In this document: in pieces, positions 835 to 22,631 of the stretch
Layout: every line of letters begins with the position of its first letter
Position numbering within the stretch: position 1 is the first letter of the stretch
NCBI GenBank assembly: GCA_039683575.1
Contig: JBDKRC010000109.1
Location: forward strand, 1-27,457
DNA: 27,457 bases
Direction: 5' to 3'
Source of the DNA: Armatimonadia bacterium
GTDB lineage: Bacteria > Armatimonadota > Zipacnadia > Zipacnadales > UBA11051
The notes under the pieces: model-generated
The model's input: the letters and a program-made list of their open reading frames with translations, nothing else
What the model was told of the DNA's origin: nothing
The model's database searches: none
Translations under genes and position numbers: made by a program

Positions 835-862
835 GCAGGTATACTCTGGAACACTGCGGAAT
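835..862 (+). promoter_or_regulatory. Sigma-H-like promoter (GCAGGT-N18-GAAT)
   Basis: AGGT 837-840, 18 nt, GAAT 859-862, 46 nt before the ATG at 905. The same geometry occurs at five other gene starts. Confidence 0.6.
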
Positions 863-904
863 GCATCGGTGTCCTAAACAGTCTTTGGAGGCAGGTTCCC
901 CCTC

Positions 905-1996
905 ATGCGGCTCCGATACATGGTCCTGACAATCGCCGTACTTGCCACAACCTGCGCCCTGGCGGCCGAGCTTGGCAATCTTCTGCCGCTCCAGCCACCG
1001 CAGGTGGTATTTACCCGCCAGGCCGGCGTATACCTGCGCCACGAAGCAGTCACGCAGCTTCGCCAGGGCGAGAACTGTCTCCTCTTCGATCACGGGCGTC
1101 TAGACGTAGACCCCGCTACAGTGGAATTCCGCGTCCTCTCACCCCGCGAGGGCGTTCAGGTGCTTGGCCGCCAGATCGCCGCCAACTCCGGCCAGAGCGT
1201 GTGGCTCGTGCAGGCCCGGCAGCCGGTCGAAGCACGCCTGCAGTTGACCTATGCCGCGAAGGCCCTCGAGACCGAGGTCTCATACACCCTGAACCTCCGC
1301 CCTGCGCGTCAGGACCTGACGCTCGAGGCCCAGGTTGCCCTCAAGAACGGCGGCAAGCTCAGCCTGCCGCAGGTTCAGGTCGTTCTGCCCTCCGGCCAGC
1401 GCCTCACCGCCGCTCTGGAGCCCGGGCAGACTGTCCAGCAGCGCCTGTTTCGCATTGAGGGCATTCCGTACCAGACCAGCTATCTCTATGACAACAGCCG
1501 CTTCAAGGACAGCGTGCGGGCCATCCTGACCATGCCGCGCGATGGCAACAGCGACTTCGACAAGCAGGCTCTCCCTGCGGGCAAGCTCAAGGTCTACGCC
1601 CCCGCTGCCGGGGACGCGGCCACTTTCATCGGCGACAACGCCCTGCCCTACACGCCCCGGCGCGAGAAGGTCGAACTGGACCTCGGCAACGTCTCGGAGA
1701 TCACGGTTCTGCGCACGAAGCTGCGGGGCGATCAGGTGAACGTCCGCACCGACGTCTACCGCAAGCTGGCGGTGTTTGATCTGGAAGAAGAGTACGAGCT
1801 TGAGTTTGCCAACCACCGCGCCGGACGCGTAGTGGTGGCGGTACAGGAGCACGTGCCCGGCGACTGGCAGGTGCTGAAGGCGACCCACGAGTACACCAGG
1901 CGTGACGCCGCAACGCTGGAGTTCACCGTGCCGCTGGAGCCCAACCAACTGACCAAGCTTCACTACAGCCTCAAGCGTCTGAACGTAGAGCCCTGA
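905..1996 (+). CDS. Secreted DUF4139-domain protein
   Basis: GGAGG SD and a signal peptide. C-terminal ALPAGKLKVY...FIGDNALPYTP..EKVELDLG...YELEFANH...VAVQEHVPGDW...LEFTVPL resembles DUF4139 proteins. Confidence 0.7.
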   Translation: MRLRYMVLTIAVLATTCALAAELGNLLPLQPPQVVFTRQAGVYLRHEAVTQLRQGENCLLFDHGRLDVDPATVEFRVLSPREGVQVLGRQIAANSGQSVWLVQARQPVEARLQLTYAAKALETEVSYTLNLRPARQDLTLEAQVALKNGGKLSLPQVQVVLPSGQRLTAALEPGQTVQQRLFRIEGIPYQTSYLYDNSRFKDSVRAILTMPRDGNSDFDKQALPAGKLKVYAPAAGDAATFIGDNALPYTPRREKVELDLGNVSEITVLRTKLRGDQVNVRTDVYRKLAVFDLEEEYELEFANHRAGRVVVAVQEHVPGDWQVLKATHEYTRRDAATLEFTVPLEPNQLTKLHYSLKRLNVEP

Positions 1997-2068
1997 GACG
2001 CTTCAGTTTCCATCGTCCGCCACCTGTTCCCGTCGCACCCGCAATACCCGCTTCTGATTGGTCGCACT

Positions 2069-2867: not shown

Positions 2868-3506
2868 GTGCTGATTTCCCGCCGGCGGGGCTTCACGCTG
2901 ATCGAACTCCTGGTTGTCATCGCCATCATCGCCGTGCTCGCGGCGATTCTCTTCCCCGTATTCGCTCGCGCCCGCGAGCGCGCCCGCTCCATCCGCTGCG
3001 TCTCCAACCTCAAGCAGCTCGGCTCCGCTATCCGCATGTATATGGACGACTACGACGGCTACTTCCCGTGGGCCGTGGACCCGGCCGATAGGAACCTCCC
3101 CCAGATCTGGAACGGTTTCCCCCAGTGGCAGTCCTGGATCGCGTACATGCCGCTGATGCACCAGGTAGTGGACCCGTACGTCAAGAACCGCGAAGTCTGG
3201 CACTGCCCGTCGGATAAGGGCTACGATGTACTGGAAGACACCGGCCTGCCCCTCCCCGCCCATCCCACCGGCTTTGCGACCTTCGGCACCAGCTACATGT
3301 ACCGCACCGAAATCACGTTCCTGCAGGCCTCGCAGGAGAGCATGCTGGATGCGGTCGGCACCAATGTGTTGTTCGACAGTGATGGGGATTGGCACGGCGG
3401 GGGGGACGCCGAGGATGGCCGGTGGAATATCCTCTACGGCGACGGGCACGCCAAAACCGCGAATCGGTCACAGTACGACAAAGCCTGGCATACGGCGATA
3501 CACTAA
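2868..3506 (+). CDS. Prepilin-type N-terminal cleavage/methylation protein (DUF1559-like, H-X9-DG type)
   Basis: GTG start with GGGAGGGA SD and TATAAT at ~2812. [49 protein letters not shown]-terminal H...[11 protein letters not shown]. Confidence 0.9.
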
Positions 3507-4186
3507 GTGCCGTCTGGGATTCTGATTTCCTGAAGCTTGTAGCGGTATTCAGGCCGCAACCGCGTCACAATAACCCCGTTCGGCTCCGTCGCATGTCGTA
3601 CGAACCATGCCACATCGTTGCGGCCATAGCGCGCAGTCTTCCACCGTTTGAGCTTGACGAAGTCGTACACCATGCCGTCCGCGCCAATGATGCCTACATG
3701 CCAGCAGGCTCCGGGATATGGGGCGTACCATGGGGAATGTGCCACTGACACCGCATCACCCGGCAGCAGCGGGCTCTTGTGATCCCAGACGAGGTTCTGG
3801 AAGTACTCGGGGTTGCTCCCTAACAGATGCCTCTCCGAGGCGCGCCTGAACCGCGCCTTCGCTCCCAGCCCCTCATCCATCACGCATTTGACGAAGTCAG
3901 AGCAGTCATTCCCCTCGTCCCGTACGCCAAGCCCGAGCACGAACTTGCCCATTGGCCGGGTCTCGTATAGCTCGATAGCGGCCTTGCCGATGGCGACGTT
4001 CAGCGGCTGCTGGCCCGGATGCTCGCGCAGGAAGTGCCTCCGTGCCCGGCGCTCACGCTCTTGTGCCGACTCCATGTGCGGCAGCAACATCGTGTACATG
4101 GCCGGGGGCCGGAACCGGTAGAGATAGGCCCCGACCATGGCTACAGCCACGATGATGAGCGCAATTGCGGCACGTTTGTACTTCAT
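3503..4186 (-). CDS. Membrane-anchored NlpC/P60-like (papain-fold) cysteine hydrolase
   Basis: N-terminal hydrophobic anchor; GNDCSDFV (catalytic Cys), LLPGDAV, WHVGI (His), then VYDF. Starts 2 nt after the upstream gene's stop. Confidence 0.65.
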
Positions 4187-4188
4187 TG

Positions 4189-5217
4189 CTACTTACTCAG
4201 CACCAAATCCGCCGCCACCAGCCGGTGATCGGATACCTTCCCATCCCTCGCAAACGTCTGCACCGGCTTCGGGCCGTCCTTTACGAAGATATGGTCAATC
4301 CGCACCATCGGCCGCTCTCGCCGGTAGGTCAGCCCCCAGCCCCGCCCGGCCACGAACGCGTTGGTCGCCTCCGCTGAGATGCGCCGGTAGATCTCCGCAT
4401 TCGGCGGCGTGTTGAAGTCCCCCGCCACGATCTTGTTCTCCCCCGGCTCCTGCAGCCACTTCACCACCGTCGCCGTCTCATTCTCCCGCCCCTCTCGCGT
4501 GTGGTCCAAAAAGCCCGCAAGGTCGTAGCTGTTCTGCTTCACCGTCCGCCCGGTGAAGGCCGTGATGAAGTGTACGTTAAGCACCCGCACGCGCCCCTGC
4601 GGCAGGTCTATCACCGTCTCCAGCCCATGGCGATAGTTCGGGTACGCCCCCAGCCTCAGTGCGCGGCTGCTCACAATCCTGCCCCGCGTCAGTGTCGTGA
4701 CTTCATGCGTGTGCGCTGCCTGCGCCCCCGGCAGCACCTCGGCGAAGTCCTTTCGGCGCGCCTCCTGCAGGCAGACGATATCCGGCTTCAGGCTCTCCAG
4801 CACCTCGCGCATCTGCGGCGTCTCGTGGTAGCTCTCGTGTACGTTCCACGTCACGACCCGCAACGGCTGTTTCCCGCCAAGCCGGGCGCGATGGGGGATC
4901 GTCGGCGGTAACAGTGCCACTATTCCCACCAGCAGTAGCACAGCGTTCCCTATCACCAGCCTCCGTGCCCGCGCCAGCAGCGATAGCAGCACCATCGCCG
5001 CCATCGGCAGCAGCAGGGGCGGCTGGGGCATGTACACGAGCATGAAAGTCAGGTGATGCTCTTCGCCAAAGGACTTCTCCGCCACAATGATGATGGTAAG
5101 ATACACAAACACCAGCAGTGTCCCCAGCAGGCAAAGCACCCGCGCGCAGCCGCACCCGCTATGGTGCCGCCGCCGTGGCCGTCGCTGGTTGTGGCCCCCC
5201 GGCTCGTGCTCTGCCAT
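4189..5217 (-). CDS. Endonuclease/exonuclease/phosphatase (EEP) family membrane protein
   Basis: Start reassigned to ATG 5217 (AAGGGAG SD, TATAAT upstream). About three N-terminal TM helices, then VVTWNV, DIVCLQE, NVHF, IVAGDFN, RIDHIF, SDHR. Confidence 0.9.
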   Translation of the reverse strand: MAEHEPGGHNQRRPRRRHHSGCGCARVLCLLGTLLVFVYLTIIIVAEKSFGEEHHLTFMLVYMPQPPLLLPMAAMVLLSLLARARRLVIGNAVLLLVGIVALLPPTIPHRARLGGKQPLRVVTWNVHESYHETPQMREVLESLKPDIVCLQEARRKDFAEVLPGAQAAHTHEVTTLTRGRIVSSRALRLGAYPNYRHGLETVIDLPQGRVRVLNVHFITAFTGRTVKQNSYDLAGFLDHTREGRENETATVVKWLQEPGENKIVAGDFNTPPNAEIYRRISAEATNAFVAGRGWGLTYRRERPMVRIDHIFVKDGPKPVQTFARDGKVSDHRLVAADLVLSK

Positions 5218-5291
5218 GGCTGCTCCCTTCGGGCTCATTATACAGGCGCAGGCGAAATAGATGAACCCGGTCGTTGCTGGTAGCGCGCCCG

Positions 5292-5319
5292 GCAGGAATC
5301 TCACCCTCTCCCGGCGAAC
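5292..5319 (+). promoter_or_regulatory. Sigma-H-like promoter (GCAGGA-N18-GAAC)
   Basis: AGGA 5294-5297, 18 nt, GAA at 5316, 34 nt before the ATG at 5350. Confidence 0.6.
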
Positions 5320-5349
5320 CCTCCTCCACTTCTGCGCTGGAGGCTCACA

Positions 5350-6066
5350 ATGAACTTCATTGACTACTCCCGCTCCTTCGTCACCTTTCAGGTGCCCGGT
5401 AACAACGCCCGCATTCAGGTCGAAGCCCGCTGCGTGCTTACTGCCCCCGACGGCTCTTCCCAGCAGTTCCTGATGTTTGCCTCCTGCAAGTCGGAAGACA
5501 CTTATGCCGAAGATGAGCTCTTCCGCGTCCCCAACTATGACTTCTCCGGTATCTTCGGCGAGCACGACTACTGCATCGCCCGCATCCACGCCTGCACCGA
5601 CGACGAGCAACCCGACGTCGGCACCATCGCAGGGCGCTTCAGCGGGCTCGTACGCCACCTGTGCGACGTCCCGCGGGTCACGCCCCTGACCGACAAAGCC
5701 TCCATCATCCGCGCCACGCTGGACCACAAGGTCATCATCGGCCGGACTGAGCTGAGCGATGGTGAGGGCACGGTCGCGGTTATCGAGTACCCCGTCAAGA
5801 CGATGAACGTCAACCCCGACCTTCAGATGTTTCAGACCGACACCGGCCCGGTACCGCTATATAGCTTCGGCAGCGAGGCCCCCGACGCGATGTCCCGCTT
5901 TGAGTGGGCCTATGTGGCCTTCAACGACTTCACTGGCGCCGAGTTCGTCATCCAGCGACCCACGCCGATCATGTGCGAGGGCAAAGTCGTCGCCACTACC
6001 ACCCATTACTCCGAGATCCGCCAATCCGATCAGGCCGTGAACACCCTGTACGCCCTTGAGGACTGA
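5350..6066 (+). CDS. Hypothetical protein
   Basis: GGAGG SD, codon usage typical of + strand genes, and 1 nt gap to the next ATG. Motifs such as ASCKSEDTY..LF..PNYDF and IEYPVKTMN; no function recognised. Confidence 0.8.
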   Translation: MNFIDYSRSFVTFQVPGNNARIQVEARCVLTAPDGSSQQFLMFASCKSEDTYAEDELFRVPNYDFSGIFGEHDYCIARIHACTDDEQPDVGTIAGRFSGLVRHLCDVPRVTPLTDKASIIRATLDHKVIIGRTELSDGEGTVAVIEYPVKTMNVNPDLQMFQTDTGPVPLYSFGSEAPDAMSRFEWAYVAFNDFTGAEFVIQRPTPIMCEGKVVATTTHYSEIRQSDQAVNTLYALED

Positions 6067-6067
6067 C

Positions 6068-6913
6068 ATGCCCGATACCGACCGTCCCCTGAATGTCCTT
6101 GTCTTCGGCGCCCATCCCGACGACTGCGACCTCCGCTTCGGCGGCGCGGCCATGCTCTATCGCCAACATGGTCACAACGTCCGCTTCGTATCGCTCACCA
6201 ACGGCGACACCGGACACCACGAGATCGGCGGCGGGGACCTCGCCCGGCGCCGCTATGCCGAGGCCCAGGCCGCCGCCAAAGTCGCCGATATCGAGTATCA
6301 GGTCGTGGACATCCACAATGGTGAGCTTGACGCCTCCGTGCCCAACCGCAAGCTCGTCATTCAGATCATGCGCGAGTTCAAGGCCGACCTGGTCCTGTGC
6401 CACCGCGCCAACGACTACCATCCCGACCACCGCGCCGTCGGAACTCTCGTACAGGACGCGGCCTATACCGTCACCGTCCCCAACGTCGCGCCGCTGACCG
6501 AGCCCCTCAGGATGCCACCGGTCGTCGGGTACATGTTCGACGACTTCCAGGATCCCACACCCTTCCGCGCCACCTTCGCCGTGGACATCGAGGAGGTCAT
6601 GGAGCGCAAGATAGACATGGTGCGCTGCCATGTCTCGCAGATGTACGAGTGGCTGCCATACGGCGATGGCATCCTGGACAAGGTCCCGGCCGACGACGCC
6701 GGTCGCCGCGAGATGACCCGGGCCAACATGTACCGCCGTTTCGGCCACCAGGCCGAAAGGTGCCAAGAAGCCCTCGTGCGCTGCTACGGCGAAGAGCGCG
6801 GCAAGGCCGTCAAGTGGTGCGAGGCCATCATGATCTCGCAATACGGCCTCGCCCTGCGCGACGATGCCTGGGATCGCTTCTTCCCCTTCTTCCCAAAGCG
6901 CTCGGCCTTGTGA
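6068..6913 (+). CDS. PIG-L / LmbE family N-acetyl deacetylase
   Basis: VFGAHPDDCD, SLTNGD.G, RR..EA, DYHPDHR metal-binding motifs; ATG at 6068 with GAGGA SD. Confidence 0.92.
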   Translation: MPDTDRPLNVLVFGAHPDDCDLRFGGAAMLYRQHGHNVRFVSLTNGDTGHHEIGGGDLARRRYAEAQAAAKVADIEYQVVDIHNGELDASVPNRKLVIQIMREFKADLVLCHRANDYHPDHRAVGTLVQDAAYTVTVPNVAPLTEPLRMPPVVGYMFDDFQDPTPFRATFAVDIEEVMERKIDMVRCHVSQMYEWLPYGDGILDKVPADDAGRREMTRANMYRRFGHQAERCQEALVRCYGEERGKAVKWCEAIMISQYGLALRDDAWDRFFPFFPKRSAL

Positions 6914-6957
6914 CAACGCGGAGCAAAGGGCGGGAGGGCTCTCCAGAGACCGGCCTG

Positions 6958-7749
6958 ATGCCTGACATCATTGACTTCGTCCTAATCGCCGACGCCCACG
7001 TGCAGGACGGCGACGCCCGCACCCTGCCGGGCATCATCGACCGGATCAACGCCCTTGACCCGTTACCGCGGTTCGTCGTCTCCCTCGGCGACAACATCTA
7101 CGGCGCCGCCCACCGCGACGGCCCCGCCGATATGCGCCTGTACCACTTCCACATCCAACGCCTGAAATGCCCCCACTACTACGTCCTCGGCGGCCATGAT
7201 CTGGAGCCGGTAGAGGTCTTCCACCAGCTAACCTGGCCCGAGCTACTGGCAATCTGGGAGCTGCCCAGCCGGTGGTACAGCTTCGATCAGGGCCCGCTCC
7301 ACTGCTGCGTGCTCGATTCATGGGCACATCTCCAGCCCGAACTGCTCGCCGAACAGCTCACGTGGTTCGCTGACGACCTAGCGACCTCGACTGCCCCCCT
7401 CCTCGTCTTCACCCACGAGGCTCTCGGCTTTCAGCAATCGGACCTGCCGCTGTGGGTCAATGAGGACAACCGCAACTTCTGGCCTCCGGGCAATCCCTTT
7501 GAGAGGCTGCTCGAAGCCCACAGCGACCGCCTGCTCGGCGTCTTCGCGGGCCACAAACACCGCTGCCTGCACAAGTGCCAGAACCTGATCGACTACCACC
7601 TCGTCGCCCCGGCCTTCCGGCACGGCGGGCAGTTCGCACAGGTGACACTGGAACTGAACGGTCACTGGGCAGTCCATGCGCACCCGCCCTCCCGCCCGCA
7701 GGGCCCCGAACACGACATTCAGCAGAGCTATCGCCGCAAACCGTCGTAG
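6958..7749 (+). CDS. Calcineurin-like metallophosphoesterase
   Basis: Start reassigned to ATG 6958. IADAH, LGDN, LGGHD (variant of GNHD), FTHE, AGHKH. Confidence 0.88.
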   Translation: MPDIIDFVLIADAHVQDGDARTLPGIIDRINALDPLPRFVVSLGDNIYGAAHRDGPADMRLYHFHIQRLKCPHYYVLGGHDLEPVEVFHQLTWPELLAIWELPSRWYSFDQGPLHCCVLDSWAHLQPELLAEQLTWFADDLATSTAPLLVFTHEALGFQQSDLPLWVNEDNRNFWPPGNPFERLLEAHSDRLLGVFAGHKHRCLHKCQNLIDYHLVAPAFRHGGQFAQVTLELNGHWAVHAHPPSRPQGPEHDIQQSYRRKPS

Positions 7750-7768
7750 GACGGGCCTCTCGCCCGTC
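7746..7768 (+). repeat. GTAG-tagged REP overlapping the TAG stop codon
   Basis: GTAGGACGGGCCTCTCGCCCGTC; its TAG (7747-7749) is the stop of the upstream gene. Confidence 0.75.
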
Positions 7769-7790
7769 AACACCCGCGAGGTACCCCCCC

Positions 7791-8861
7791 ATGACCATGC
7801 GCGAACGCATGCTCGCCGTCATCCACGGACAGGAGCACGACCGCGTACCCTTCGTCCAGTACGACGGCATCGCCGCACCCAACACCGAAGTCTGGGATCT
7901 CGTGGGCCGCGACAACCTCGGCGTTCTGCGCTGGAGCGCCCTGCACACCCTCTACGCCCCCAACTGCAGCATCGAAAGCGAGCAGATCAGCCTCAACGGC
8001 CGCCCTGCCCTGCGCAACACCCTTTTCACCCCCGCCGGCGCTCTCACCCAGGAGCGCCTGTACGAGCCGGTCTTCCACACCACCGCCGCCCACACCCACT
8101 ACGTCAAGTCCATCGCCGACTATGAGATACTGATCGCCTACCTGCGCGACTTGAAGGTGGGGGAGAGCACTGATGGCTTCCACCAGTCCCAGCGTGACCT
8201 CGGCGACGACGGCCTCCCGATGCCTGCCGTCATGCGCACGCCCTACCAGCAGCTTTGGGTGCAGTGGGTGAGCCTGCAGGACCTCTGCCTGCATCTCGTA
8301 GATGCCCCGGACGTAACGGGGGAGTGCCTCGAACTGCTGGCACAGCTCGAACTGCAGGTCTTCGAGGTGGTCTATCAGGTAGCGCGGCGCGAGCCCATTC
8401 ACTTCGTGGACATCCCCGACAACATCACCGCCCCGACCATCGGCGAGCGCTACTTCCGCCAGTACTGCCTGCCGCTCTACCAGCGCTTCGCGGACATGAT
8501 GTCCTCTCTCGACGTACCCGTCTTCGTCCACATGGACGGCGACCTCAAGCCCCTGTGGAGCGCCATCGCCGAGTCCGGCATCCGTGGGCTGGATTCCTTC
8601 TCTCCGCCGCCGGACAACGACACCTCGGTTGCCCAGGCCCTCTCTCTTTGGCCTGAGATGCGCCTGTTCATGAACTTCCCCTCCTCCGTCCACCTCGCCG
8701 CCCCTGAAGCCATCTACGCTACCACCATGGACCTCCTCGCCCAGGACAACCACTCCGGTCGCCTGCAGATACAGGTCTCCGAGAACGTCCCCCCGGGCGT
8801 CTGGCGCACCAGCTACCCGGAAATCATCCGCGCCATCCACGACTTCGCCCAATTGCGATAG
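7791..8861 (+). CDS. Uroporphyrinogen decarboxylase (UroD/MtaA-like TIM-barrel) family protein, not true HemE
   Basis: Start reassigned to ATG 7791 (GAGGT SD). MTMRERMLAVIHG..DRVPF, TPAGALT, YVKSIADY, DIPDNIT, YFRQYCLPLY, FVHMDG. Confidence 0.75.
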   Translation: MTMRERMLAVIHGQEHDRVPFVQYDGIAAPNTEVWDLVGRDNLGVLRWSALHTLYAPNCSIESEQISLNGRPALRNTLFTPAGALTQERLYEPVFHTTAAHTHYVKSIADYEILIAYLRDLKVGESTDGFHQSQRDLGDDGLPMPAVMRTPYQQLWVQWVSLQDLCLHLVDAPDVTGECLELLAQLELQVFEVVYQVARREPIHFVDIPDNITAPTIGERYFRQYCLPLYQRFADMMSSLDVPVFVHMDGDLKPLWSAIAESGIRGLDSFSPPPDNDTSVAQALSLWPEMRLFMNFPSSVHLAAPEAIYATTMDLLAQDNHSGRLQIQVSENVPPGVWRTSYPEIIRAIHDFAQLR

Positions 8862-8914
8862 TCATGCACGCCGGACATTCCCGTCGGCCGCTCCCGCAGC
8901 GTCAACCTCGCCGG

Positions 8915-8942
8915 GAAGGTGCCTCGCGCCTTCTCGTCGAAA
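8915..8942 (+). promoter_or_regulatory. Sigma-H-like promoter (GAAGGT-N18-GAAA)
   Basis: AGGT 8917-8920, 18 nt, GAA at 8939, 49 nt before the GTG at 8988. Confidence 0.5.
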
Positions 8943-8987
8943 CCCCTCCAGCGACCAGCGCATCTCCGCTTGCCCGAGGTGTCCTTA

Positions 8988-11144: not shown

Positions 11145-11153
11145 CCCATCCGC

Positions 11154-11178
11154 GTAGGCCGGTTCGTCTCGAACCGAC
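11154..11178 (+). repeat. GTAG-tagged REP (GGTTCGTCTCGAACC subtype)
   Basis: GTAGGCCGGTTCGTCTCGAACCGAC, 9 nt after the stop codon. Confidence 0.8.
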
Positions 11179-13085: not shown

Positions 13086-13092
13086 CAAACGC

Positions 13093-13117
13093 GTAGGCGG
13101 GTTCGTCTCGAACCCGC
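13093..13117 (+). repeat. GTAG-tagged REP inside a probable operon spacer
   Basis: GTAGGCGGGTTCGTCTCGAACCCGC lies between the AKR stop and the AGGAG SD of the next gene. Confidence 0.8.
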
Positions 13118-13135
13118 GCCTCCAGGAGACCACCA

Positions 13136-14107: not shown

Positions 14108-14129
14108 CCGCGCCGCCAGCCATTCGGGT

Positions 14130-14156
14130 TGTCATCCTGAACGAAGTGAAGGATCT
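14130..14156 (+). repeat. GTCATCCTGA...GAAGGATCT palindromic REP-like element (CGTC/TGTC-type)
   Basis: TGTCATCCTGAACGAAGTGAAGGATCT just downstream of a stop. Resembles the widespread GTCATCCTGAGCGAAGCGAAGGATCT repeat; single copy in this window. Confidence 0.6.
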
Positions 14157-14284
14157 CTCCTGCCTTCCAGCCTGCCCGGCCGCCTGCCCTCTCGCCCCTC
14201 CCCAAAATACTTCTCTCCCCACCGGGAAGAAAACCCCGCCTCAAGTGATTGATCATGTAGCACTGCTGCATTGCGAACTACCCC

Positions 14285-14313
14285 TTGACAAATACTACGG
14301 GCAGTAGTACATT
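14285..14313 (+). promoter_or_regulatory. Sigma70-type promoter with an inverted repeat in the spacer
   Basis: TTGACA(14285-14290)-17 nt-TACATT(14308-14313); TACTAC-N5-GTAGTA at 14293-14309. Confidence 0.65.
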
Positions 14314-14376
14314 GAAGGAGTATCGCGATAGCTTCACCTGCCACCGCAACTATTCTGCACGTAGAAGGTGATCTCA

Positions 14377-15828
14377 ATGAAACGTATGGTGTGGTTGGCA
14401 ACCATTCTCAGTCTCCTGATGATCGCGAGCCTCGCCTACGCCGGGGGCAAGGGTAGCAGGGGCGGCGATAGCTCCGGCTCCTCAGCCAAATACGAGTCCT
14501 CCGGCAAGCAGCACTCGGATTCCGGCTCCAGCCAGTCCGTGAAGTCCAGTTCCGAGTCCAAGCCCAGCCACTCGTCCTCGTCGAGTCGCGAGTCCAAGCC
14601 CAGCTACTCGCCTTCGTCGGGCAGCGAATCCAGGCCGAGCTACTCATCAAAGCCCAGCCCCAGCTATCAGCCAAAGCCCAGTTCTCAGGGCAGCTACAGC
14701 TACGGGCCCAAGGATTATTCCCCCAGGCCCGCTAACGGGCCCACCTACGACTACCAACCGAAGCCCGGTGGCACCACCTACAACTACGGTGGCGTGCAGC
14801 CGCGCACCAAGTACGAAGCCCCGGTGAAGCCTCAGAGCTACGGCTCGGGCCAGACCTACACGCCGCAGAAGTCTGACGGCCCGCAGTTCCGGGACTCCCA
14901 GAAGACGCAGCCGCAGTACTCCTCCTCCGAGCCGAGCCGTGTGCCGCAGAAGTCCGACGGCCCGCAGTTCCGGGACTCTCAGAAGACGCAGCCGCAGTAC
15001 TCCTCCTCCGAGCCCGGCCGTGTGCCGCAAAAGTCTGACGGCCCACAGTTCCGAGACTCCCAAAAGACGCGCCCAGAGTACTCCTACGGCAAGGTTCCCC
15101 CTGCCAATGGCGGCTCCGGGCCTTCCGGCGGCCACTCTGGCGCCGTCCTGAACAATGACGGCCGACAGCAGGGCTTCCATCCCGGCGACACCGCCGTCCT
15201 CAACGACGGCCACCAGTACCAGTCGCCCAACCGCGATGAAGCCAAGCTGGACCACAACCCCAATGACGGCAACCACAACTATGGCCCCGGCGGTGGTCAT
15301 CACGACTATGGCTACGGCGGCGGTCACCACGATGACCATGACTACGATCACGACCACTACATCTACGAACACGGTCATGCCCGGCACCACTGCAACTCCA
15401 GTTGCCACTGGTGGCGCCCGCTGTTCACCTTCTCCTACTCCTATGCCTACCCGGTCTATGTCGAGGTGCCCGTGCCGGTCTACTACGGCCGCGAGCGCCC
15501 CTATGACTGGAGCTATATCGACGACTGCGAAATCTACGCCGCTGACGGCGCCTACCTTGGCTTCTTCGCCCGCGACTACTATCGCGAGGACTCGATCGCC
15601 AATCCCGAAGGCCCCTTCGGCAGCCGCTGGTCCGCTACCAGCATCTTCAACTCCGAGTGCGCCTACGGCGATGCCAACAGCGCGCTCAGCCCCTGGAACC
15701 CCTACACCAGCACGCCCCCGCGGCTCTTCTACCGCGGTACGTTCCGGGGTTATCTGACCGTCAACACCAGCCTCCAACCCCGGGTCGATCCCCGCTGGGT
15801 AGTCGACGGTTACCTCTACAACAACTAG
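14377..15828 (+). CDS. Secreted low-complexity protein: S/P/Y/Q-rich region, 27-aa tandem repeat, His/Asp-rich segment, compact C-terminal domain
   Basis: AAGGTG SD and signal peptide MKRMVWLATILSLLMIASLAYA. C-terminal DGAYLG...DSIANPEGPFGS.WSATSIFN...YG..NSALSPWNPY..TPP...GYLTVN. Confidence 0.8.
   Translation: MKRMVWLATILSLLMIASLAYAGGKGSRGGDSSGSSAKYESSGKQHSDSGSSQSVKSSSESKPSHSSSSSRESKPSYSPSSGSESRPSYSSKPSPSYQPKPSSQGSYSYGPKDYSPRPANGPTYDYQPKPGGTTYNYGGVQPRTKYEAPVKPQSYGSGQTYTPQKSDGPQFRDSQKTQPQYSSSEPSRVPQKSDGPQFRDSQKTQPQYSSSEPGRVPQKSDGPQFRDSQKTRPEYSYGKVPPANGGSGPSGGHSGAVLNNDGRQQGFHPGDTAVLNDGHQYQSPNRDEAKLDHNPNDGNHNYGPGGGHHDYGYGGGHHDDHDYDHDHYIYEHGHARHHCNSSCHWWRPLFTFSYSYAYPVYVEVPVPVYYGRERPYDWSYIDDCEIYAADGAYLGFFARDYYREDSIANPEGPFGSRWSATSIFNSECAYGDANSALSPWNPYTSTPPRLFYRGTFRGYLTVNTSLQPRVDPRWVVDGYLYNN
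14863..15084 (+). repeat. In-frame 81-bp tandem repeat, ~2.7 copies
   Basis: Units start at 14863, 14944 and 15025, encoding PQKSDGPQFRDSQKTQPQYSSSEP(S/G)RV. Confidence 0.95.
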
Positions 15829-15853
15829 CACAGGCTCTCTCCCCGGCCTGTCA

Positions 15854-15896
15854 GAATCAGATCGGCGTGGCCTACCCGGCCACGCCGATCTGATTC
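15854..15896. repeat. Perfect 19-bp inverted repeat (hairpin, possible terminator or stabiliser)
   Basis: GAATCAGATCGGCGTGGCC-TACCC-GGCCACGCCGATCTGATTC; no U-tract. Confidence 0.75.
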
Positions 15897-15900
15897 CCCC

Positions 15901-15929
15901 GCAGGAATCCCGCGCTACTGCGACGAATA
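15901..15929 (+). promoter_or_regulatory. Sigma-H-like promoter (GCAGGAAT...GACGAATA)
   Basis: AGGA 15903-15906, 18 nt, GAAT 15925-15928, 51 nt before the GTG at 15976; the best match to the sigma-H consensus. Confidence 0.65.
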
Positions 15930-15975
15930 ACAACCATGGAAGGGGCGGTTGGGAGCGTTTCAGGGAGGGACCCGC

Positions 15976-17001
15976 GTGAGTTTCAACTTCAGCCTCGGCA
16001 ACAGTGGCGGCGTCAGCGCCGGCACCGGCGGTTGCGCTGGGTGCAGCACCGGCTGCGGCGCCATCTTCGGCCTGCTCTTCGGCCTCCTGCTCGTACCAGC
16101 GGGCTTCTACATGGTCTACTATGGCGAGGCCAAGCTCGTTAACCACGGAGTCGTCTTCGCCCGCACCGCCATGCTCCCCGTCGAAGCCGCTGCCAAGGTC
16201 AAGGAGGGCTTGGTCAAGTTCAGAGGCCAGCCCAAAGGCGAATTCCTGCGCGTCCCCCGCTATGACAAGCCGGTCCTCTACTGGGATACCGACATCGAGG
16301 AGTACCAGGAGAAGCGGGATTCCGACGGCGATAGGACGCACAGTTGGGAGAGTGTCGGCGGCGAGACCAAGTGGGCTGCCTTCACAATCGGCCCCCTGAA
16401 GATCAACCCCGAGAAAGCCAAGCCCATTGGGCAGAAGATGGTCTTCAAGGGTGTCAAAAAGCGCAATGCCGCGACCTTCGACCCCGCTGTCAGCGACAGC
16501 AGCCCTGCTGTGGGAGACCGGCGACTGGAGCTGCGCGTGATTGACGCCAACAGCCCTCTGATTGTCCTCGGCGACCCCGACGGCAAGACCTGCTGCGGAG
16601 GCTCCACCTTCGTCGTCAGCGCCCTCGACGAGGCAGGCACAGAGAAGGCCCTGCGCACCGAGTACAAGATATTCTACTGGATGCTCAAGATCGGTGCCGG
16701 TCTCGCCATCTGGCTCGGCTTGATCGCCATCTTCGCCCCGTTGACCGGTCTGCTCGGCGGAATGCCCCTCGTGGGCGGCTCTCTCGGTGCGGCCTTTGCC
16801 TTCGGCGCCTTCGTCTTCAGCGCCCTGATGGTCGCGGTAGCCACCTTTGCCCTGAAGTTCTTCTGGCTGGTGGCCATCCTGGCAGCCCTGGCGCTCGTCG
16901 TAGTGGTCGCCGTCGGCATCGGCATGTCACGCAAGAGAGCGGCGGCCGCACCGTCAGCGCAGATACCAACAGTCCTGCCTCCGCCCCCGCCGGCGCAGTA
17001 G
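15976..17001 (+). CDS. TMEM43 (DUF1625)-like membrane protein
   Basis: GTG with GGGAGGGA SD. One N-terminal TM ending ...YYGE, a large soluble loop, then WMLKIGAGLAIWLGLIAIFAPL..LLGGMPLVG and further TMs, which is the TMEM43 topology. Cys/Gly-rich N-terminus and Pro-rich tail. Confidence 0.6.
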   Translation: MSFNFSLGNSGGVSAGTGGCAGCSTGCGAIFGLLFGLLLVPAGFYMVYYGEAKLVNHGVVFARTAMLPVEAAAKVKEGLVKFRGQPKGEFLRVPRYDKPVLYWDTDIEEYQEKRDSDGDRTHSWESVGGETKWAAFTIGPLKINPEKAKPIGQKMVFKGVKKRNAATFDPAVSDSSPAVGDRRLELRVIDANSPLIVLGDPDGKTCCGGSTFVVSALDEAGTEKALRTEYKIFYWMLKIGAGLAIWLGLIAIFAPLTGLLGGMPLVGGSLGAAFAFGAFVFSALMVAVATFALKFFWLVAILAALALVVVVAVGIGMSRKRAAAAPSAQIPTVLPPPPPAQ

Positions 17002-17063
17002 CAGAACGAGCGGAGGGCGCTGGGGGAGCGGGCACGGTTCGTAAAATGTACACCTCAATGCGC

Positions 17064-17125
17064 GTAGGTCGGTTCATCCCTGAACCGACGCGGGGTGGGA
17101 GTGGGTTCGAGACGAACCCACCTAC
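17064..17125. repeat. Inverted pair of GTAG-tagged REPs
   Basis: GTAGGTCGGTTCATCCCTGAACCGAC (17064-17089) and GTGGGTTCGAGACGAACCCACCTAC (17101-17125). Confidence 0.8.
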
Positions 17126-17365
17126 TCCGGCAAACGGGCTCAGAAGTCTCAGCCACGGCTCAATCCGCGCCGTCCGCTTTACCTGCTCTTGATGCTCTGT
17201 TTGACCATTCCTTAGGAAAACGTGGTATGATATCCGCGCCGGGGAGCGTGCCTGACGGCCTCACTGCCCCGAATACCAAGCTCCGGCCTGTTGGCACTGC
17301 GAGCGCCATTTGGCCGCCTCGTATCATGCCCAGGCTATCCGCAGCCTGAGAGAGGCGATAGGACC

Positions 17366-19612
17366 ATGCCCGAACAGCCCTCATCATGGACCAGGCAGGG
17401 GGGAAAACTGCTCCAGCAGGAGCAGAAAATCCGCCTGGTTATCACCACCCTGCTGGTGGTCTTTCTTCTCGCCGGGCGCGGGGCCATTACCGATCTTGCC
17501 TCAGTCTACCTCGCTGTCACCCTCATGGTCGGCAGCCTGCTCATCAGTCTCTTCAGCTCCCGTGACCAAGCCATCGGCCCCCAGCAGTTCCAACTGAATG
17601 CTGTAGCCCTCACCGTCCTGGATCTCGTAGCCGTCACCCTGCTGCTCCGCGGTACCGGGGGGCTGCACAGCGGCTTCTTCTCCCTCTACCTGGTCTCGCT
17701 CATTTTCGCCGCTGCCTTCTTCCGCGGCCTCGAGCTCGCCCTGCTCACCGCCCTCGCCGCTCTGCTCTACATTGGCGTCTCCTATCACTACCTCGCCCTG
17801 GGCCTCAACGCCTGGCATCTCTCCGCCCGGCTGATCGGGATGATCGTCGTTGCCTGGTACGCCTACCTGCTCTCGGGCGTGCTCCATCGTGAGAAAGAAA
17901 ACAACGACCGCCTTCTGCGCCACCTCACCGAGGGCGTCCTGCTCTTCGACAAGGACCAAAAGGTCTCTCTCGTCAATTCCACGCTGCTTGGCCTGCTGAA
18001 CCGCGAAGAGGGCGATATCATCGGGAAAACCCGCGCTGACCTGGCGGCCCAGGACAACGTGATGAGCTGGATCCTCGGTGACGTCGGCTCCGATGCCGAC
18101 GGCTTCCGCACCCGCATCGGCTGTTTCCCCGAAGCCGACCTGCCGTTTACCGAGTGCACCACCATCCCCTGTGGCCTCAAGGAAGACGGCGGCGGCTGGG
18201 TTGTGGTCTGCAAGGACCTCCGCGACCTCAAAGTCGACCCCAAGTCAACTCGCCGCGCCACCTGCGACAAGCTGGCCCCGCTCTCCAACCTTCGCGCCCT
18301 CTCCGAGGCCCTCTACGGCATGGCCGAGTACCTCGACGAGAGCAAGCGCTGGCAGGCGGTCGAGGTCATTGAGAAGCATACCCTGGCCCTGCAGGCGATC
18401 CTCGCCGAGATGCTGCACCGTGGCCAGGACCAGAAGGAAAGCCTCGATCTCGACTTCATAGACGTCTCCAGCCTCCTGGCCAACACCCGCCGCCTGCTTG
18501 AGATCCAACCCGTCGGTGAGGGCCTCGAACTCGAGATCTTCTGCCAGCAGGGTCTGCCGGAGGTCAACGCCGACCGCAGCCGCCTCGGCCAGAGCCTCTT
18601 GCAGATCTGCAAAGCCTTCATGGCTATCGGCAAGCCCGACGACAAGCTCGTCATAGACGTCCGCTCCGCCGAGCGCAAAGTCGTCTTCATGCTCCAACTG
18701 GTCAACAGGCTCAACCCCAGGGCCGTGCCCGAGGCCCTGAGCGAGGCCGAAGCCGCCCAATTCGGCGAGCTTTGCGACCTGCCCATCTTCCGCATCATCG
18801 AGGAGCATCACGGCCGGTGGGAGTGCTCTCCCACGGACGTCAACCGGCGCGTGATCTTCGACCTGCCGATCTCCGGCCCGGCAACCCTGGACGAGACCGT
18901 CCTCTCCGAGGAAGCTGCCGCCGGCGAACGCTCTCCTGCCATGCCCAACAACTGGCCCCTGCAGCCCTCCCTCGCTGCCGAGGTCACCAACCAGCTCAAG
19001 AACACCCTCAACGTCATCCGTGGCTACGCCGAGATGAGCGTCTACTCTGACGACATCGAGCGTCTTCGCGACGCGATGAAGTCAACTATCGATCTCAGCG
19101 ATCAGGCTTCTGAACTGGTGGATGTGCTGCAGCCGTCGACCGGGGAATTCGACCTTGAGGTGAAGCTGCCCGAGGGTGCCGAGGAAGAGGCCGAATCCAT
19201 GGCCATCCCGGAGACGTCGGCGGCAGTCGGCGAGGGTGCCATCCTGGTGGTGGACGACGATGCTGCCATGAGGGGACTGCTGGTTGACCTGCTCCATGCC
19301 GTCGGCTATGAGACCATCGAGGCCAACGACGGCCGCGCTGCTGTCGAACGAATACGCCTCACGCCACCCGCTCTCGCCTTCGTAGACCTCTCCATGCCCC
19401 GCGTCACCGGCGTCGAGGTCATGAAAGAGGCCAGAAAGTACCTCCCCGGCCTCCCGGTGGTGCTGATGACCGGCTACGCCACCCAGGTGGCTGTCGAGGC
19501 CCTCGGCGACGAGAAGCCCTACGCCATCCTGAGCAAGCCCTTCACCATAGATGACGTCCTATCACTTGCCAAGGCGGTAGTAGGCCCTCCCGCCGCTAGA
19601 AACGCCTCATAG
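17366..19612 (+). CDS. Membrane hybrid sensor: TM - PAS - degenerate HisKA/HATPase - second degenerate HisKA - receiver domain
   Basis: ATG 17366 (GAGAGG upstream). About 5-6 TM helices; PAS-like LRHLTEGVLLFDKDQKVSLVN; REC with ILVVDDD, FVDLSMP, LMTGY, LSKPF. Confidence 0.85.
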   Translation: MPEQPSSWTRQGGKLLQQEQKIRLVITTLLVVFLLAGRGAITDLASVYLAVTLMVGSLLISLFSSRDQAIGPQQFQLNAVALTVLDLVAVTLLLRGTGGLHSGFFSLYLVSLIFAAAFFRGLELALLTALAALLYIGVSYHYLALGLNAWHLSARLIGMIVVAWYAYLLSGVLHREKENNDRLLRHLTEGVLLFDKDQKVSLVNSTLLGLLNREEGDIIGKTRADLAAQDNVMSWILGDVGSDADGFRTRIGCFPEADLPFTECTTIPCGLKEDGGGWVVVCKDLRDLKVDPKSTRRATCDKLAPLSNLRALSEALYGMAEYLDESKRWQAVEVIEKHTLALQAILAEMLHRGQDQKESLDLDFIDVSSLLANTRRLLEIQPVGEGLELEIFCQQGLPEVNADRSRLGQSLLQICKAFMAIGKPDDKLVIDVRSAERKVVFMLQLVNRLNPRAVPEALSEAEAAQFGELCDLPIFRIIEEHHGRWECSPTDVNRRVIFDLPISGPATLDETVLSEEAAAGERSPAMPNNWPLQPSLAAEVTNQLKNTLNVIRGYAEMSVYSDDIERLRDAMKSTIDLSDQASELVDVLQPSTGEFDLEVKLPEGAEEEAESMAIPETSAAVGEGAILVVDDDAAMRGLLVDLLHAVGYETIEANDGRAAVERIRLTPPALAFVDLSMPRVTGVEVMKEARKYLPGLPVVLMTGYATQVAVEALGDEKPYAILSKPFTIDDVLSLAKAVVGPPAARNAS

Positions 19613-19624
19613 GCGCTGCCTCTC

Positions 19625-22561
19625 CTACTTCAGCTTCTCAAGCATCTCACCGATCTGTACCCGCACCGCGTCGGCGGCGCCGCGATCCCGCGGCGCCTGC
19701 CAGCGCATATGGTTGACGTTGTACTCGGCGATCGTCGCTCCCGGCGCCGACAGAACCCGGCCCGGCGCCCCCGTCAGCAGCGCCTTCGCCCGCGGCAGCA
19801 GCTTGTGCTTCGGCTCCTGCTTCTCCAACTCGCTGACCCGGTCGCGCAGCAGGCAAAGATACTCAAAGTCCCCGGCGCTCTCCCGGATCGCCTCCATGTG
19901 CTTGCCTGCGGTCACGCTATCCTTGTCCATGAACAGCGGCGTGTATGACGTATCCTGCTGGACATAGGCATTCCAGGAACTCCCGCCGCCATTACTCCCC
20001 AGCGCCCAGAAGAAGCTCCCCTCCCCGCCCAGCTCAAACGCGCTCCACGCCTGCAGCCGATAGTAAGCGTACGGGTCCAGGCTCCGCGTCGGCCCCCAGC
20101 ATGAGTACATGTAGATCCCCTTGCCAGCCTCTTTCTGCCTTTGGTATACCGCCTTCACCGCCTCATTCCTCTCGGCCAGGAGCGACGGCCGGTGCGGGCA
20201 CATATAGCCCACCGCCGCCAGTATCTCCGGGGTGCAGCGCTCCAGCTCCCGCGTGCCGTCGTCCCAGATCGACACCTCCGGCTCCGCCGCTTTGATCGCC
20301 CGCGACCAGGCGATGATCATGCGGTCATCTTCCACGTTCTGAGACTCGTCCACGAGCAGCACAAACAGCTTCTCCGGCCCGATCCCGAGAGTCTTCAGAT
20401 GCGCCACCCAGAACCGTATCCACGTGCCCACCTTCGCTTCGAACAGCGGATCATCAATCTTGAGCTCGCCCCCGGCGTCAACGCGCTTGAACACATGGTA
20501 GCGCCGAGCCTGCGGCCAGTCCTTCACCCAGTTGTCAAAGCTCCCGGTGCGCGGCGGCTTGGTGAACTGCCCCGCCGCATCGAACTCCCCAAACCCCATC
20601 ACGCCCGATGTCGCCCACGGTGAGTCCACAAACCTGCTCTGCAGATGCGCCAGGAATGCCGCCCGATTCTGCGGCGTCACCCCGTACAGGTTGCCATCCG
20701 TGTAGTCCCAGCCGCCCACGTGCAGCCTCGGCTGAGCCGGGAACTGCAGGTCAAACACCCTAACCGTCACCGGCACCCGGAGCGGCTTCGCGGTCGCCCC
20801 CTCAATCACCACCGCCCCCGTGTGCCTGCCCGGCTTCGGGCCCGCCGCAGTGATCGAGAACCACACCTGTCGCGTCATGCCCGCCGGCAGCGCCAGTTCA
20901 TACCGCCCCTCCCGCGCCGTCAGTTCCGGCAAAGCCGCGCCCACGACCACTCCCTCCGGCGTATCGGTCCACGCCACCTCATGCACCCGCACACACTCCG
21001 CCGCCAGCCGTTCCAGCCTCAACTCTGCCGTCAGCGGCTTTGCCGTGCAGTTGGTCAGGTTCAGCGCACAGGCGCGCGTCTCGCCCTGCATCGCCGCAAC
21101 GCTCAGCATCGGCGTCGGTGGCGACGCCGGCAGCTCTGCGGGCGTCAGGTAGTCCCACGGATTGGCCCTCCACGCCACCACAGGCGCCCGCCCCAGAGCC
21201 GCCCGCGCCGTCCCCAGCAGCCCATACACCCGCTCGTGCACAGCATTGAACGGCAGCACCCCGCGGAAAGTGGCTGGGTCAACCACCGGCACTTCCCGAA
21301 TGTCCCCGTCCAGCTTCTCCGCCTGACGCGCCAGCCCCTGGCGCACCGCCGCTGGCAGCTTCTCCTTCTCAATCGCCGTCCGCACCGTCTCCAGGTCCTT
21401 ACCCATGCGGCGCTTGAGGTTCACCATGAAGGGATCGGCGTCGAAATACTCCGGCGCATAGTTGACAGCCTTCCCCGGCAACGCGAACTGCTTGAACGCC
21501 TCGTCCCCGCGGTACACCTCGATCTCGTCCACAAACGTGCAGTTCCCCACCGGCGTGATCAGCAGCTTGACATACCGCCCATGCGTCTTCAGCGCATCGG
21601 TCTGAAAGCGCTGCACCGTGTACGTGCCATCCGGCGCAGGCGGTGTGCTGCTCAGCTTCAGCAGGTCCCCGAGTTCGTGGTAGGCCCGCCCATCCGCGCT
21701 CACCAGCACCCTGATCGCCGCTGGCCACTTCACCCCTGCGATCCCCGCCGCCGAGTTCAGCGACAGCCCTCTGATCGGGTAGTCGTCCCCCAGGTCCAGT
21801 GTAACCACCAGGTCCTGCATCCGCACCCAGCCCACCGTGCTCTTCTGCGTCCAGAAATACCCCACCGTATACTGCCCATCGGTAAGCTGCGTGCTGTCGC
21901 CCGGGTCCGTGCAGTGTGGATACCCCGGCGTGGGCTGCAAGGTATAGGACTTCCCCCGCGCCACGTTTTCGTATGCGAAGCCGCCGCTCTGCTCCGTCCG
22001 CAGCGCCTGCGCCTCCTGCCTGGACACCACCTGCACCTCGTCGAATCCGACCTTGCCTGCCGGAGCCTTGCGTTCCGGCGAGTGCAGCCGCGTCAGATCG
22101 GTCCAAAGCTCAACAACCGCCTCTCCGCCGTTCCCCGTGTTGAACTCAGCAGCGTACTGCCGCCACACCCCCGCCGGCGCCTCACCCACCAGCCGCACCA
22201 GTTCAACCCCTTCCGCCCCCGCCATCCTCAGCCTGACCACCGGCTTGCTGGCCCCGTCAGACTTCATCGCACAAGTCAGCACCAGGTCCGCATGCGCCGG
22301 CAGCGAGAGCGTCTGCGTCACAGGCTGAGCCGCACTCGCCACCGTGGCTGCATACTGCAAGGAATCATTGCCCATACGCCCATCGGCATCCGTGCCATAC
22401 CACCCGCCACCCGCAGGCACACTCCACCCCTCCGGCAGGCGCCCGCTATCGGCTCCCGGCGTAAACCCGCCATTGCGCACCAGCGGCTCAGCAGCAGCCA
22501 GCGCTCCAACCGACAGCACTAACACGATAGCCGCCAGCGTCAGCTTCATACCAAGCTTCAT
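19625..22561 (-). CDS. Secreted multidomain putative glycoside hydrolase (CBM-like + discoidin/F5-8C + GH123/DUF4091-like)
   Basis: Start reassigned to ATG 22561 (GAGAGG SD) with a signal peptide. LVRNGGF CBM-like start; NVARGKSY..LTDG..VTLDLG..FVDEIEVY discoidin; C-terminal EAIRESAGDFEYL. Confidence 0.7.
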   Translation of the reverse strand: MKLGMKLTLAAIVLVLSVGALAAAEPLVRNGGFTPGADSGRLPEGWSVPAGGGWYGTDADGRMGNDSLQYAATVASAAQPVTQTLSLPAHADLVLTCAMKSDGASKPVVRLRMAGAEGVELVRLVGEAPAGVWRQYAAEFNTGNGGEAVVELWTDLTRLHSPERKAPAGKVGFDEVQVVSRQEAQALRTEQSGGFAYENVARGKSYTLQPTPGYPHCTDPGDSTQLTDGQYTVGYFWTQKSTVGWVRMQDLVVTLDLGDDYPIRGLSLNSAAGIAGVKWPAAIRVLVSADGRAYHELGDLLKLSSTPPAPDGTYTVQRFQTDALKTHGRYVKLLITPVGNCTFVDEIEVYRGDEAFKQFALPGKAVNYAPEYFDADPFMVNLKRRMGKDLETVRTAIEKEKLPAAVRQGLARQAEKLDGDIREVPVVDPATFRGVLPFNAVHERVYGLLGTARAALGRAPVVAWRANPWDYLTPAELPASPPTPMLSVAAMQGETRACALNLTNCTAKPLTAELRLERLAAECVRVHEVAWTDTPEGVVVGAALPELTAREGRYELALPAGMTRQVWFSITAAGPKPGRHTGAVVIEGATAKPLRVPVTVRVFDLQFPAQPRLHVGGWDYTDGNLYGVTPQNRAAFLAHLQSRFVDSPWATSGVMGFGEFDAAGQFTKPPRTGSFDNWVKDWPQARRYHVFKRVDAGGELKIDDPLFEAKVGTWIRFWVAHLKTLGIGPEKLFVLLVDESQNVEDDRMIIAWSRAIKAAEPEVSIWDDGTRELERCTPEILAAVGYMCPHRPSLLAERNEAVKAVYQRQKEAGKGIYMYSCWGPTRSLDPYAYYRLQAWSAFELGGEGSFFWALGSNGGGSSWNAYVQQDTSYTPLFMDKDSVTAGKHMEAIRESAGDFEYLCLLRDRVSELEKQEPKHKLLPRAKALLTGAPGRVLSAPGATIAEYNVNHMRWQAPRDRGAADAVRVQIGEMLEKLK

Positions 22562-22603
22562 GGCACGCCTCTCAACATGTGATTGATCCCACTCTCGCAC
22601 CTC

Positions 22604-22631
22604 ATTCCCTGCCTCCCCTCCACCCTCCTGC
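22604..22631 (-). promoter_or_regulatory. Sigma-H-like promoter (GCAGGA-N18-GAAT)
   Basis: Minus strand AGGA 22629-22626, 18 nt, GAAT 22607-22604, 46 nt before the ATG at 22561. Confidence 0.6.

Follow-up and report, generated by a model that had tools for sequence, protein, structure and literature searches.

A promoter class most likely of the SigH type precedes about one in six gene units in an Armatimonadia bacterium genome

Six intergenic regions in a 27,457-nucleotide stretch of DNA from an Armatimonadia bacterium carry, on the coding strand, the same two short boxes, AGGW and GAA, held 18 bases apart. The stretch, hereafter the window, is contig C109 (JBDKRC010000109.1) of a 6.23-Mb, 352-contig assembly (G+C 63.5%). 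What reads these boxes, and how far does their use extend beyond the window? An initial annotation of the sequence had attributed them to a sigma factor resembling sigma-H (Spo0H) of Bacillus that would govern a large regulon. All six sites were found where it had placed them, and its proposal is supported by the dyad statistics, by two SigH genes in the genome and by co-occurrence across the phylum, from which binding by the sigma factor is deduced. The motif most likely marks a SigH-type promoter class that heads roughly every sixth gene unit of the genome. As judged from sequence, this would be a second major promoter class, and we hold it highly probable that a SigH (Spo0H)-family sigma is its reader.

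Within the window AGGW-N18-GAA occurs nine times, against 3.92 +/- 1.70 in 100 dinucleotide-preserving shuffles, none of which (0/100) reached nine. Six of the nine are the intergenic sites on the coding strand, with position-weight scores of 14.1-20.4; the remaining three lie within genes (1083-1059 on the minus strand, 3163 and 26608 on the plus strand) and are compatible with chance. Genes were called with a home-made codon-usage caller, which returned 4679 genes and 88% coding sequence for the genome and from which all gene starts and gaps given below derive. Upstream regions of 60 nt or more, 3030 in number and 485 kb long together, formed the test set. On the coding strand of these regions AGGW-Nk-GAA has 417 occurrences with k=18 and 200 with k=17, compared with 45-81 at each of the other fifteen spacings between k=10 and k=26. 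When all 3-mer/3-mer dyads with spacings of 8 to 27 were ranked, AGG-N19-GAA came first, with 597 occurrences against a median of 144 (z 37.5). The genome-wide search for gapped motifs that had been recommended as a check thus returns this very motif as the top intergenic dyad, with a strong bias of strand and position.

The boxes are sharply defined. Boxes that differ from AGG or GAA by one base show no enrichment, except that AAA and CAA are slightly over-represented as second boxes. The base after AGG is A at 196, T at 221, G at 107 and C at 73 of the 597 sites, and the extended motif reads G (.84), C/A (.77), AGG, A/T>G and then, beyond the spacer, G (.67), G (.46), C (.55), GAA. No base anywhere in the spacer exceeds a frequency of 0.44, so the motif is no repeat family. 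With a two-block weight matrix and a score threshold of >11, 544 of the 3030 regions have a site in the forward and 247 in the reverse direction, and 29 after shuffling. At scores >12 the genome contains 1013 sites, 668 of them intergenic and 345 coding, and the density per kb per strand is 0.44 in intergenic and 0.03 in coding DNA. GCAGGW-N15-GNCGAA, the form with the best genome-wide contrast, was counted 106 times in this genome against 21-28 at same-phase spacings.

We compared the DNA upstream of orthologues of three window genes in five genomes of the same order, at protein identities of 26-68%. Seven of the nine orthologous upstream regions carry a site scoring >13 at the equivalent place, with unrelated spacers, and the other two carry AGGC-N17/18-GAA. 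For the gene at 905-1996 the site was found before the orthologues in G013 (19.1), G067 (17.6) and G027 (15.0), with the AGGC variants in G041 and G131. The aldo/keto reductase gene at 12150-13085 has it in G041 (13.1) and G013 (15.2), and the gene at 15976-17001 in G131 (15.1) and G041 (15.6). Could the motif nevertheless arise by chance, as a compositional artefact or from a dispersed repeat? AGG and GAA are short words, and repeat copies do match the pattern in G107 and G003, two genomes without SigH. An excess at k=17 and 18 only, the 544 regions against 29 after shuffling and the unrelated spacers at conserved orthologous sites refute this explanation, to which we give practically no weight.

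The placement of the sites relative to genes is promoter-like. In tandem intergenic regions 245 sites face the downstream gene and 17 face away from it. Convergent regions hold 3 sites in 75 kb (0.04 per kb, equal to the coding background) and divergent regions 333 sites in 150 kb (2.2 per kb), with both strands evenly represented. Genome-wide, GAA lies a median of 49 nt from the start codon, with the fullest distance bins at 30-50 nt. A loose sigma-70 pattern was present in 11 of 599 motif-bearing but in 119 of 2431 motif-less regions (odds ratio 0.36, p=4e-4). The motif thus stands in for a canonical promoter instead of occurring alongside it. These data also bear on the idea that the boxes bind a global activator or repressor instead of forming a promoter. 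In principle two short boxes could be half-sites, but they lack dyad or direct-repeat symmetry, their spacing is rigid at 17/18 nt and they strictly face the gene (245 to 17). Moreover, the depletion of sigma-70-like promoters leaves the motif regions without another recognisable driver, which argues against a regulator site. We regard this alternative as very improbable.

The canonical pattern TTG-N20-TANNNT is enriched as well, with 192 occurrences at spacer 17 and 107 at spacer 18 against about 50. None of the 45 tRNA genes predicted with ARAGORN has a site of the new class, hereafter an H-type site, within 200 nt upstream. By contrast, TTGNNN-N16-18-TANNNT precedes 20 of the 45, many of them with textbook TTGACA...TATAAT, and most of the remaining tRNA genes lie within tRNA clusters. 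The genome thus uses two promoter classes, as the initial annotation had suggested, and the canonical one serves the tRNA genes. Neither the six sites nor the class consensus shows any likeness to the RpoD-type TTGACA-N17-TATAAT. The tRNA promoters themselves are near-perfect copies of TTGACA-N17-TATAAT, frequently with a G directly before the -10 box (e.g. C196:64529, C259:3260, C223:44794); the match starts some 38-42 nt before the mature tRNA, leaving only about 10 nt between the end of the -10 box and the tRNA.

Which sigma factors could read the second class? The genome encodes 18 members of the sigma-70 family, namely RpoD (691 aa), one SigB/F/G-type sigma, FliA, 13 ECF-type sigmas and two SigH-type proteins. 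The SigH-family sigma that was to be looked for is thus present in two copies, both above the cut-off of 208 bits of NCBIfam model NF006148: sigH-1 (C263:940-1587, minus strand) scores 256.7 bits and sigH-2 (C81:8442-9131, plus strand) 230.1 bits. Against TIGR02859 they reach 242.9 and 219.0 bits, under its stricter cut-off of 294.8. The proteins, of 215 and 229 aa, both match Sigma70_r2, and neither matches Sigma70_r3, matches to which are confined to RpoD, the SigB/F/G-type sigma and FliA. Both have the two-domain layout of regions 2 and 4 without regions 1.1 and 3, and they are 40% identical to each other. An alignment of 12 sequences (A1), including five from Armatimonadota and five from Clostridia/Oscillospiraceae, shows that the blocks DHEDVVQEGMIGLFKA(I/V)RDF, QI..AV...R(Q/E)KH and K.(I/V)DNA..R are shared with the latter five. 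These shared blocks sit in region 2 and the region 4.2 helix, and overall identity to the Clostridia set is 37-41%. The likeness to SigH of Bacillus, Clostridia and Listeria hence comprises the same hidden Markov model family, the region 2 and 4.2 blocks and the missing region-3 match. The possibility that AGGA and AGGT mark the two paralogues was rejected for lack of signal: the base after AGG is linked only to the three adjacent bases, neither to spacing nor to the -10 box, and both forms occur in genomes with a single sigH copy.

The nearest relatives of SigH-1 are Armatimonadota metagenome-assembled genomes (MAGs) at 45-60% identity, with Clostridia next at 37-41%, in agreement with the earlier impression of a non-Firmicute genome. 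The named records among them are MAGs labelled Armatimonadota, Armatimonadia, Chthonomonadales and Fimbriimonadales, and some close relatives sit in MAGs labelled Actinomycetota, Clostridia or Gemmatimonadales. Of 151 genomes sampled from the phylum, 106 encode a protein above the cut-off of the SigH model, and these represent 80 of 98 genera; Bacillus subtilis was the sole control genome, out of 14, with such a protein. We counted GCAGGW-N15-GNCGAA in the 151 genomes against a reversed-pattern control. Genomes with SigH contain 2961 matches versus 1272 in the control (median ratio 2.2; ratio at least 2 in 64/106), whereas those without it contain 467 versus 461 (median ratio 0.88; ratio at least 2 in 4/45). 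In the five wholly SigH-less families (f9, f13, f14, f21 and f33; 34 genomes) the ratios are 0.6-1.2. In two f9 genomes many pattern matches are copies of one dispersed repeat each and do not represent promoters of the class; the repeat unit is GCAGGTTTYGC...CCTTTGCGGCGAA in G107, with about 15 copies, and GCAGGTGGGGTTTTAAGGAGTGGCGAA in G003, with several. Unbiased dyad scans of 400 kb from each of five other genomes gave AGG-N19-GAA as the top dyad in G133, a SigH-bearing genome of another family (43 vs 13), and a modest excess in the SigH-bearing G112 (14 vs about 5.5) and G022 (21 vs about 10); the scan of G046, which has no SigH, showed no dyad excess.

The consensus can be set beside that of known sigma-H promoters, given in the methods of Liu et al. 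2016 as (A/G)(A/C)AGG(A/G)WWW-N11-12-(A/G)(A/G)(A/C)GAA(A/T) (PMC4754846). Its AGG and GAA cores, its spacing of 17-18 and its R-M and R-R-M flanks all match the motif found here, in register. Several observations nevertheless weigh against a SigH reader or limit the figures behind it. The WWW flank and final W of the Firmicute consensus are not seen in this G+C-rich genome, and the base after AGG is A/T>G instead of A/G. SigH does not suffice for enrichment, as the ratios of families f11 (0.8, 7 genomes), f20 (1.2) and f30 (0.7) attest; the complete genome G141, SigH-positive with 217 bits, likewise has no excess (7 vs about 5 at k=18). Conversely, G031 is strongly enriched (61 vs 14) without SigH, being 80% complete and having two family mates with the gene. 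The genomes are kin and thus non-independent samples, so the p-value of the co-occurrence is given no weight, and the counts carry the caveat of gene calls from a home-made caller. RNA evidence comes from four metatranscriptome runs of one study, whose assembled contigs cover window positions 3001-23000 in fragments; such contigs cannot show 5' ends and thus hold no information on transcription start sites.

Another reader of the class might be an ECF-type sigma (13 are encoded), the SigB/F/G-type sigma or RpoD assisted by a helper. The 18 sigma-70-family genes offer candidates, an ECF sigma gene (C176) itself has an H-type site, and the several SigH-bearing families without enrichment mean that gene and motif are not one-to-one. 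Against this stand a consensus that matches sigma-H position by position and an enrichment that tracks SigH over the 151 genomes. A SigB/F/G-type sigma is over its cut-off in three of five SigH-less genomes tested, and there G007 and G046 have no excess while G064 has 15 vs 6; RpoD serves the canonical tRNA promoters. Another sigma is therefore an unlikely reader, and a SigH-family sigma is preferred.

With SigH as reader, the promoter would consist of a -35 box G-[C/A]-A-G-G-[A/T>G] and a -10 box [G]-[G]-[C]-G-A-A; a non-conserved stretch of 17 or 18 bases separates AGGN from GAA. RNA polymerase carrying a SigH-family sigma would recognize these boxes and start transcription some 6-10 nt past GAA. 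The class would co-ordinate dispersed sugar-scavenging and envelope genes, while canonical RpoD (TTGACA-N17-TATAAT) would retain the housekeeping load, e.g. the tRNA genes.

Sigma-H of B. subtilis has roughly 50 promoters. The approximately 670 intergenic sites found here also exceed the '>60 genes' reported to be under direct sigma-H control in Listeria (PMC5641562). As described in PMC4885068, Firmicute SigH is a transition-phase alternative sigma that is required for spo0A expression and targets transition-phase, sporulation and competence genes; the H-type sites, in contrast, mostly precede genes for sugar oxidoreductases, glycosidases and envelope proteins of unknown function in a sample of 82 downstream genes. 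The spacer is GC-rich here, and this order has two SigH paralogues. Armatimonadota are not known as spore formers. The ECF sigmas, alternative sigmas of the same genomes for which a regulatory role in the 'disorganized' Armatimonadetes genomes has been proposed before, have many small regulons as opposed to the hundreds of sites of this one class. Their consensus is of the GGAAC/CGT type, and the motif is unlike the ECF, FliA or SigB consensus. In Bacteroidota an unusual -33/-7 promoter is used phylum-wide and the primary sigma itself is unusual. The likeness to that phylum lies in a lineage-specific promoter type that dominates the intergenic motif statistics; the difference is that here RpoD is canonical and an alternative sigma would account for the extra class.

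Armatimonadetes genomes have been described as 'disorganized' and non-operonic, with abundant sigma factors as a potential means of co-ordinating dispersed genes (PMC4959169); neither SigH nor an AGG/GAA motif is mentioned in the available text of that paper. In the paper on the Fimbriimonas genome, rpoD, rpoE-type and fliA genes are listed and SigH is not named (PMC4072686). Our literature search, with most subscription-journal papers and supplements outside its scope, returned no paper on SigH or this promoter in Armatimonadetes/Armatimonadota. Both the sigma family and the promoter grammar were already known; their spread in Armatimonadota and the scale of about 670 intergenic sites, which make this the genome's strongest intergenic motif, appear in none of the papers searched.

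With the starts of our caller, 31-55 nt separate the GAA of the six window sites from the start codon, slightly wider than the 34-51 nt of the initial annotation. The AGG to GAA coordinates below begin at the A of AGG and end at the last A of GAA. The first H-type promoter, GCAGGT-N18-GAA at 835-861 on the plus strand (AGG to GAA 837-861, score 16.8), precedes the gene at 905-1996, whose product of 363 aa has no Pfam match. The second, GCAGGA-N18-GAA at 5292-5318 (+; 5294-5318, score 20.4), stands before the gene at 5350-6066, which is followed by genes for a PIG-L deacetylase (6068-6913), an open reading frame at 6958-7749 and a URO-D-like gene (7791-8861; Pfam). GAAGGT-N18-GAA at 8915-8941 (+; 8917-8941, score 17.0) precedes a gene for a DUF6785/DUF6784 membrane protein that runs from the caller's start at 8997 to 11144; two further DUF6785 genes elsewhere in the genome also have H-type sites. 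The fourth site, GGAGGT-N18-GAA at 12088-12114 (+; 12090-12114, score 14.3), lies before the aldo/keto reductase gene at 12150-13085 and a Zn-dependent dehydrogenase gene at 13136-14107 (Pfam). GCAGGA-N18-GAA occurs twice more, at 15901-15927 (+; 15903-15927, score 19.4) before the gene at 15976-17001, which has a weak TMEM43-like Pfam match, and on the minus strand at 22605-22631 (AGG to GAA 22629-22605, score 14.1) before a gene for an F5/8 type C domain protein (19625-22561, minus strand, 979 aa from the caller's start).

The plus-strand gene at 5350-6066, which the initial annotation had assumed, is real according to codon-position GC (GC3 0.83). The part of a minus-strand open reading frame at 4189-5727 that overlaps it is a shadow frame with a GC3 of 0.62-0.69. 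Only the 3' two-thirds of this minus-strand frame form a real Exo_endo_phos gene; the 600 nt at its 5' end shadow 5350-6066, and automatic annotation may therefore miscall the overlap. One of the intragenic matches, at 1059-1083 on the minus strand (score 15.0), runs antisense within the gene at 905-1996 and faces a BNR-repeat gene about 470 nt off at the left end of the window; it may be due to chance.

As a contrast to the H-type sites, a regular-expression search identified a canonical sigma-70 promoter, TTGACA-N17-TACATT, at 14285-14313 on the plus strand before the gene at 14386-15828. Sigma-70 promoters had been proposed for several other window genes; the one just named stands, though at 14285-14313 and not at 14377, while TTGNNN-N16-18-TANNNT found nothing before mutL or 26367. 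The gene at 14386-15828 encodes 480 aa from the caller's start, without a Pfam match, and its promoter is canonical rather than H-type. The surrounding interval 14271-15844 has by far the deepest cover in the four metatranscriptome runs, which are from wastewater, with a contig depth of up to 85.

Which genes lie behind the H-type sites? In the 18 regions of 20 kb that are richest in sites, 83 genes have one within 160 nt upstream, and 82 of them were scanned, one 69-aa gene cut by a contig end being left out. With Pfam at 1e-10, 52 of the 82 were matched and 30 were not. GFO_IDH_MocA oxidoreductases recur most often (9), and DUF6785/6784, URO-D-like, PIG-L, xylose-isomerase-like TIM barrel, DUF1559 prepilin-like and TPR proteins occur twice each. 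The sample also includes glycosidases (fucosidase, GH38, GH4, BNR, DUF4838), a fucose isomerase and an FGGY kinase, as well as a sulfatase, an esterase, ThuA and a solute-binding protein. Housekeeping or stress genes are few (Tmk, a formyltransferase, MscL, OsmC, a ComM-like ATPase and an ECF sigma). GFO_IDH_MocA was found in 9 of 82 H-type genes versus 2 of 114 site-less neighbours (p=0.009), whereas URO-D, DUF6785 and AP_endonuc_2 are present in both sets alike. Since the regions were picked by site density, the functional contrast is descriptive and no enrichment test. The description of the regulon as largely catabolic, secreted and membrane genes fits these 82 genes, although the sample was picked by density and its contrast with neighbouring genes is modest. 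The ComM-like gene, for an ATPase of the Mg-chelatase family (C264, locus L081:11845-13326, minus strand), has an H-type site; together with the two DUF1559 prepilin-like genes it may, by analogy, faintly echo the competence control exerted by Firmicute sigma-H.

The surroundings of the sigma genes were compared as well. Downstream of sigH-1 follow tRNA-Thr, tRNA-Tyr, tRNA-Thr and the start of tuf. The order of sigH and three tRNAs recurs in 6 of 41 related loci, in five of the six with EF-Tu too; L054 is counted among the 41 as lacking a tRNA or EF-Tu match, and without it the denominator is 40. None of five Clostridia loci (0/5) has the sigH-tRNA-tuf order within the fetched 1.5-kb flanks. 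In Firmicutes sigH adjoins the tuf/secE-nusG ribosomal cluster. The paralogue sigH-2 closes a set of three co-oriented genes (L080, C81:7544-9131) that also comprises a gene for a weakly CvpA-like membrane protein and one for a 127-aa protein without a family, and glyQS comes next; the CvpA-like and 127-aa genes are possible regulators of sigH-2. No H-type site was found within 260 nt upstream of sigH-1 or sigH-2 that would suggest autoregulation. Two H-type sites lie upstream of rpoD (C113:20779-22854, minus strand) at about 23085-23228, with scores of 17.7 and 14.5, some 231 and 350 nt from the start codon. In Listeria the rpoD transcription unit is fed by a sigma-H-dependent promoter (PMC5641562), so SigH input to rpoD may be a shared feature.

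SigH is usually seen as the transition-phase, sporulation and competence sigma of Firmicutes; here it appears in a little-studied phylum and at a scale that rivals the housekeeping promoter. Tentatively, and with the odds somewhat against it, we suggest that in this order and several other families SigH has grown into a co-primary sigma that heads about one sixth of promoter-bearing regions and co-ordinates 'disorganized', operon-poor genomes, mainly their sugar-scavenging and envelope genes. A SigH-type promoter class would offer a testable answer to how the scattered genes of Armatimonadetes, as portrayed in PMC4959169, are co-ordinated without operons. With the motif as a rule, promoters and transcription units can also be predicted for uncultured genomes in their hundreds. 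Since SigH-bearing families differ in motif enrichment, from none to about five-fold, the phylum presents a natural experiment on the growth and shrinkage of an alternative-sigma regulon. If sigH is ancestral and not transferred, the sporulation and competence sigma of Firmicutes would descend from a scavenging or stationary-state sigma of early Terrabacteria.

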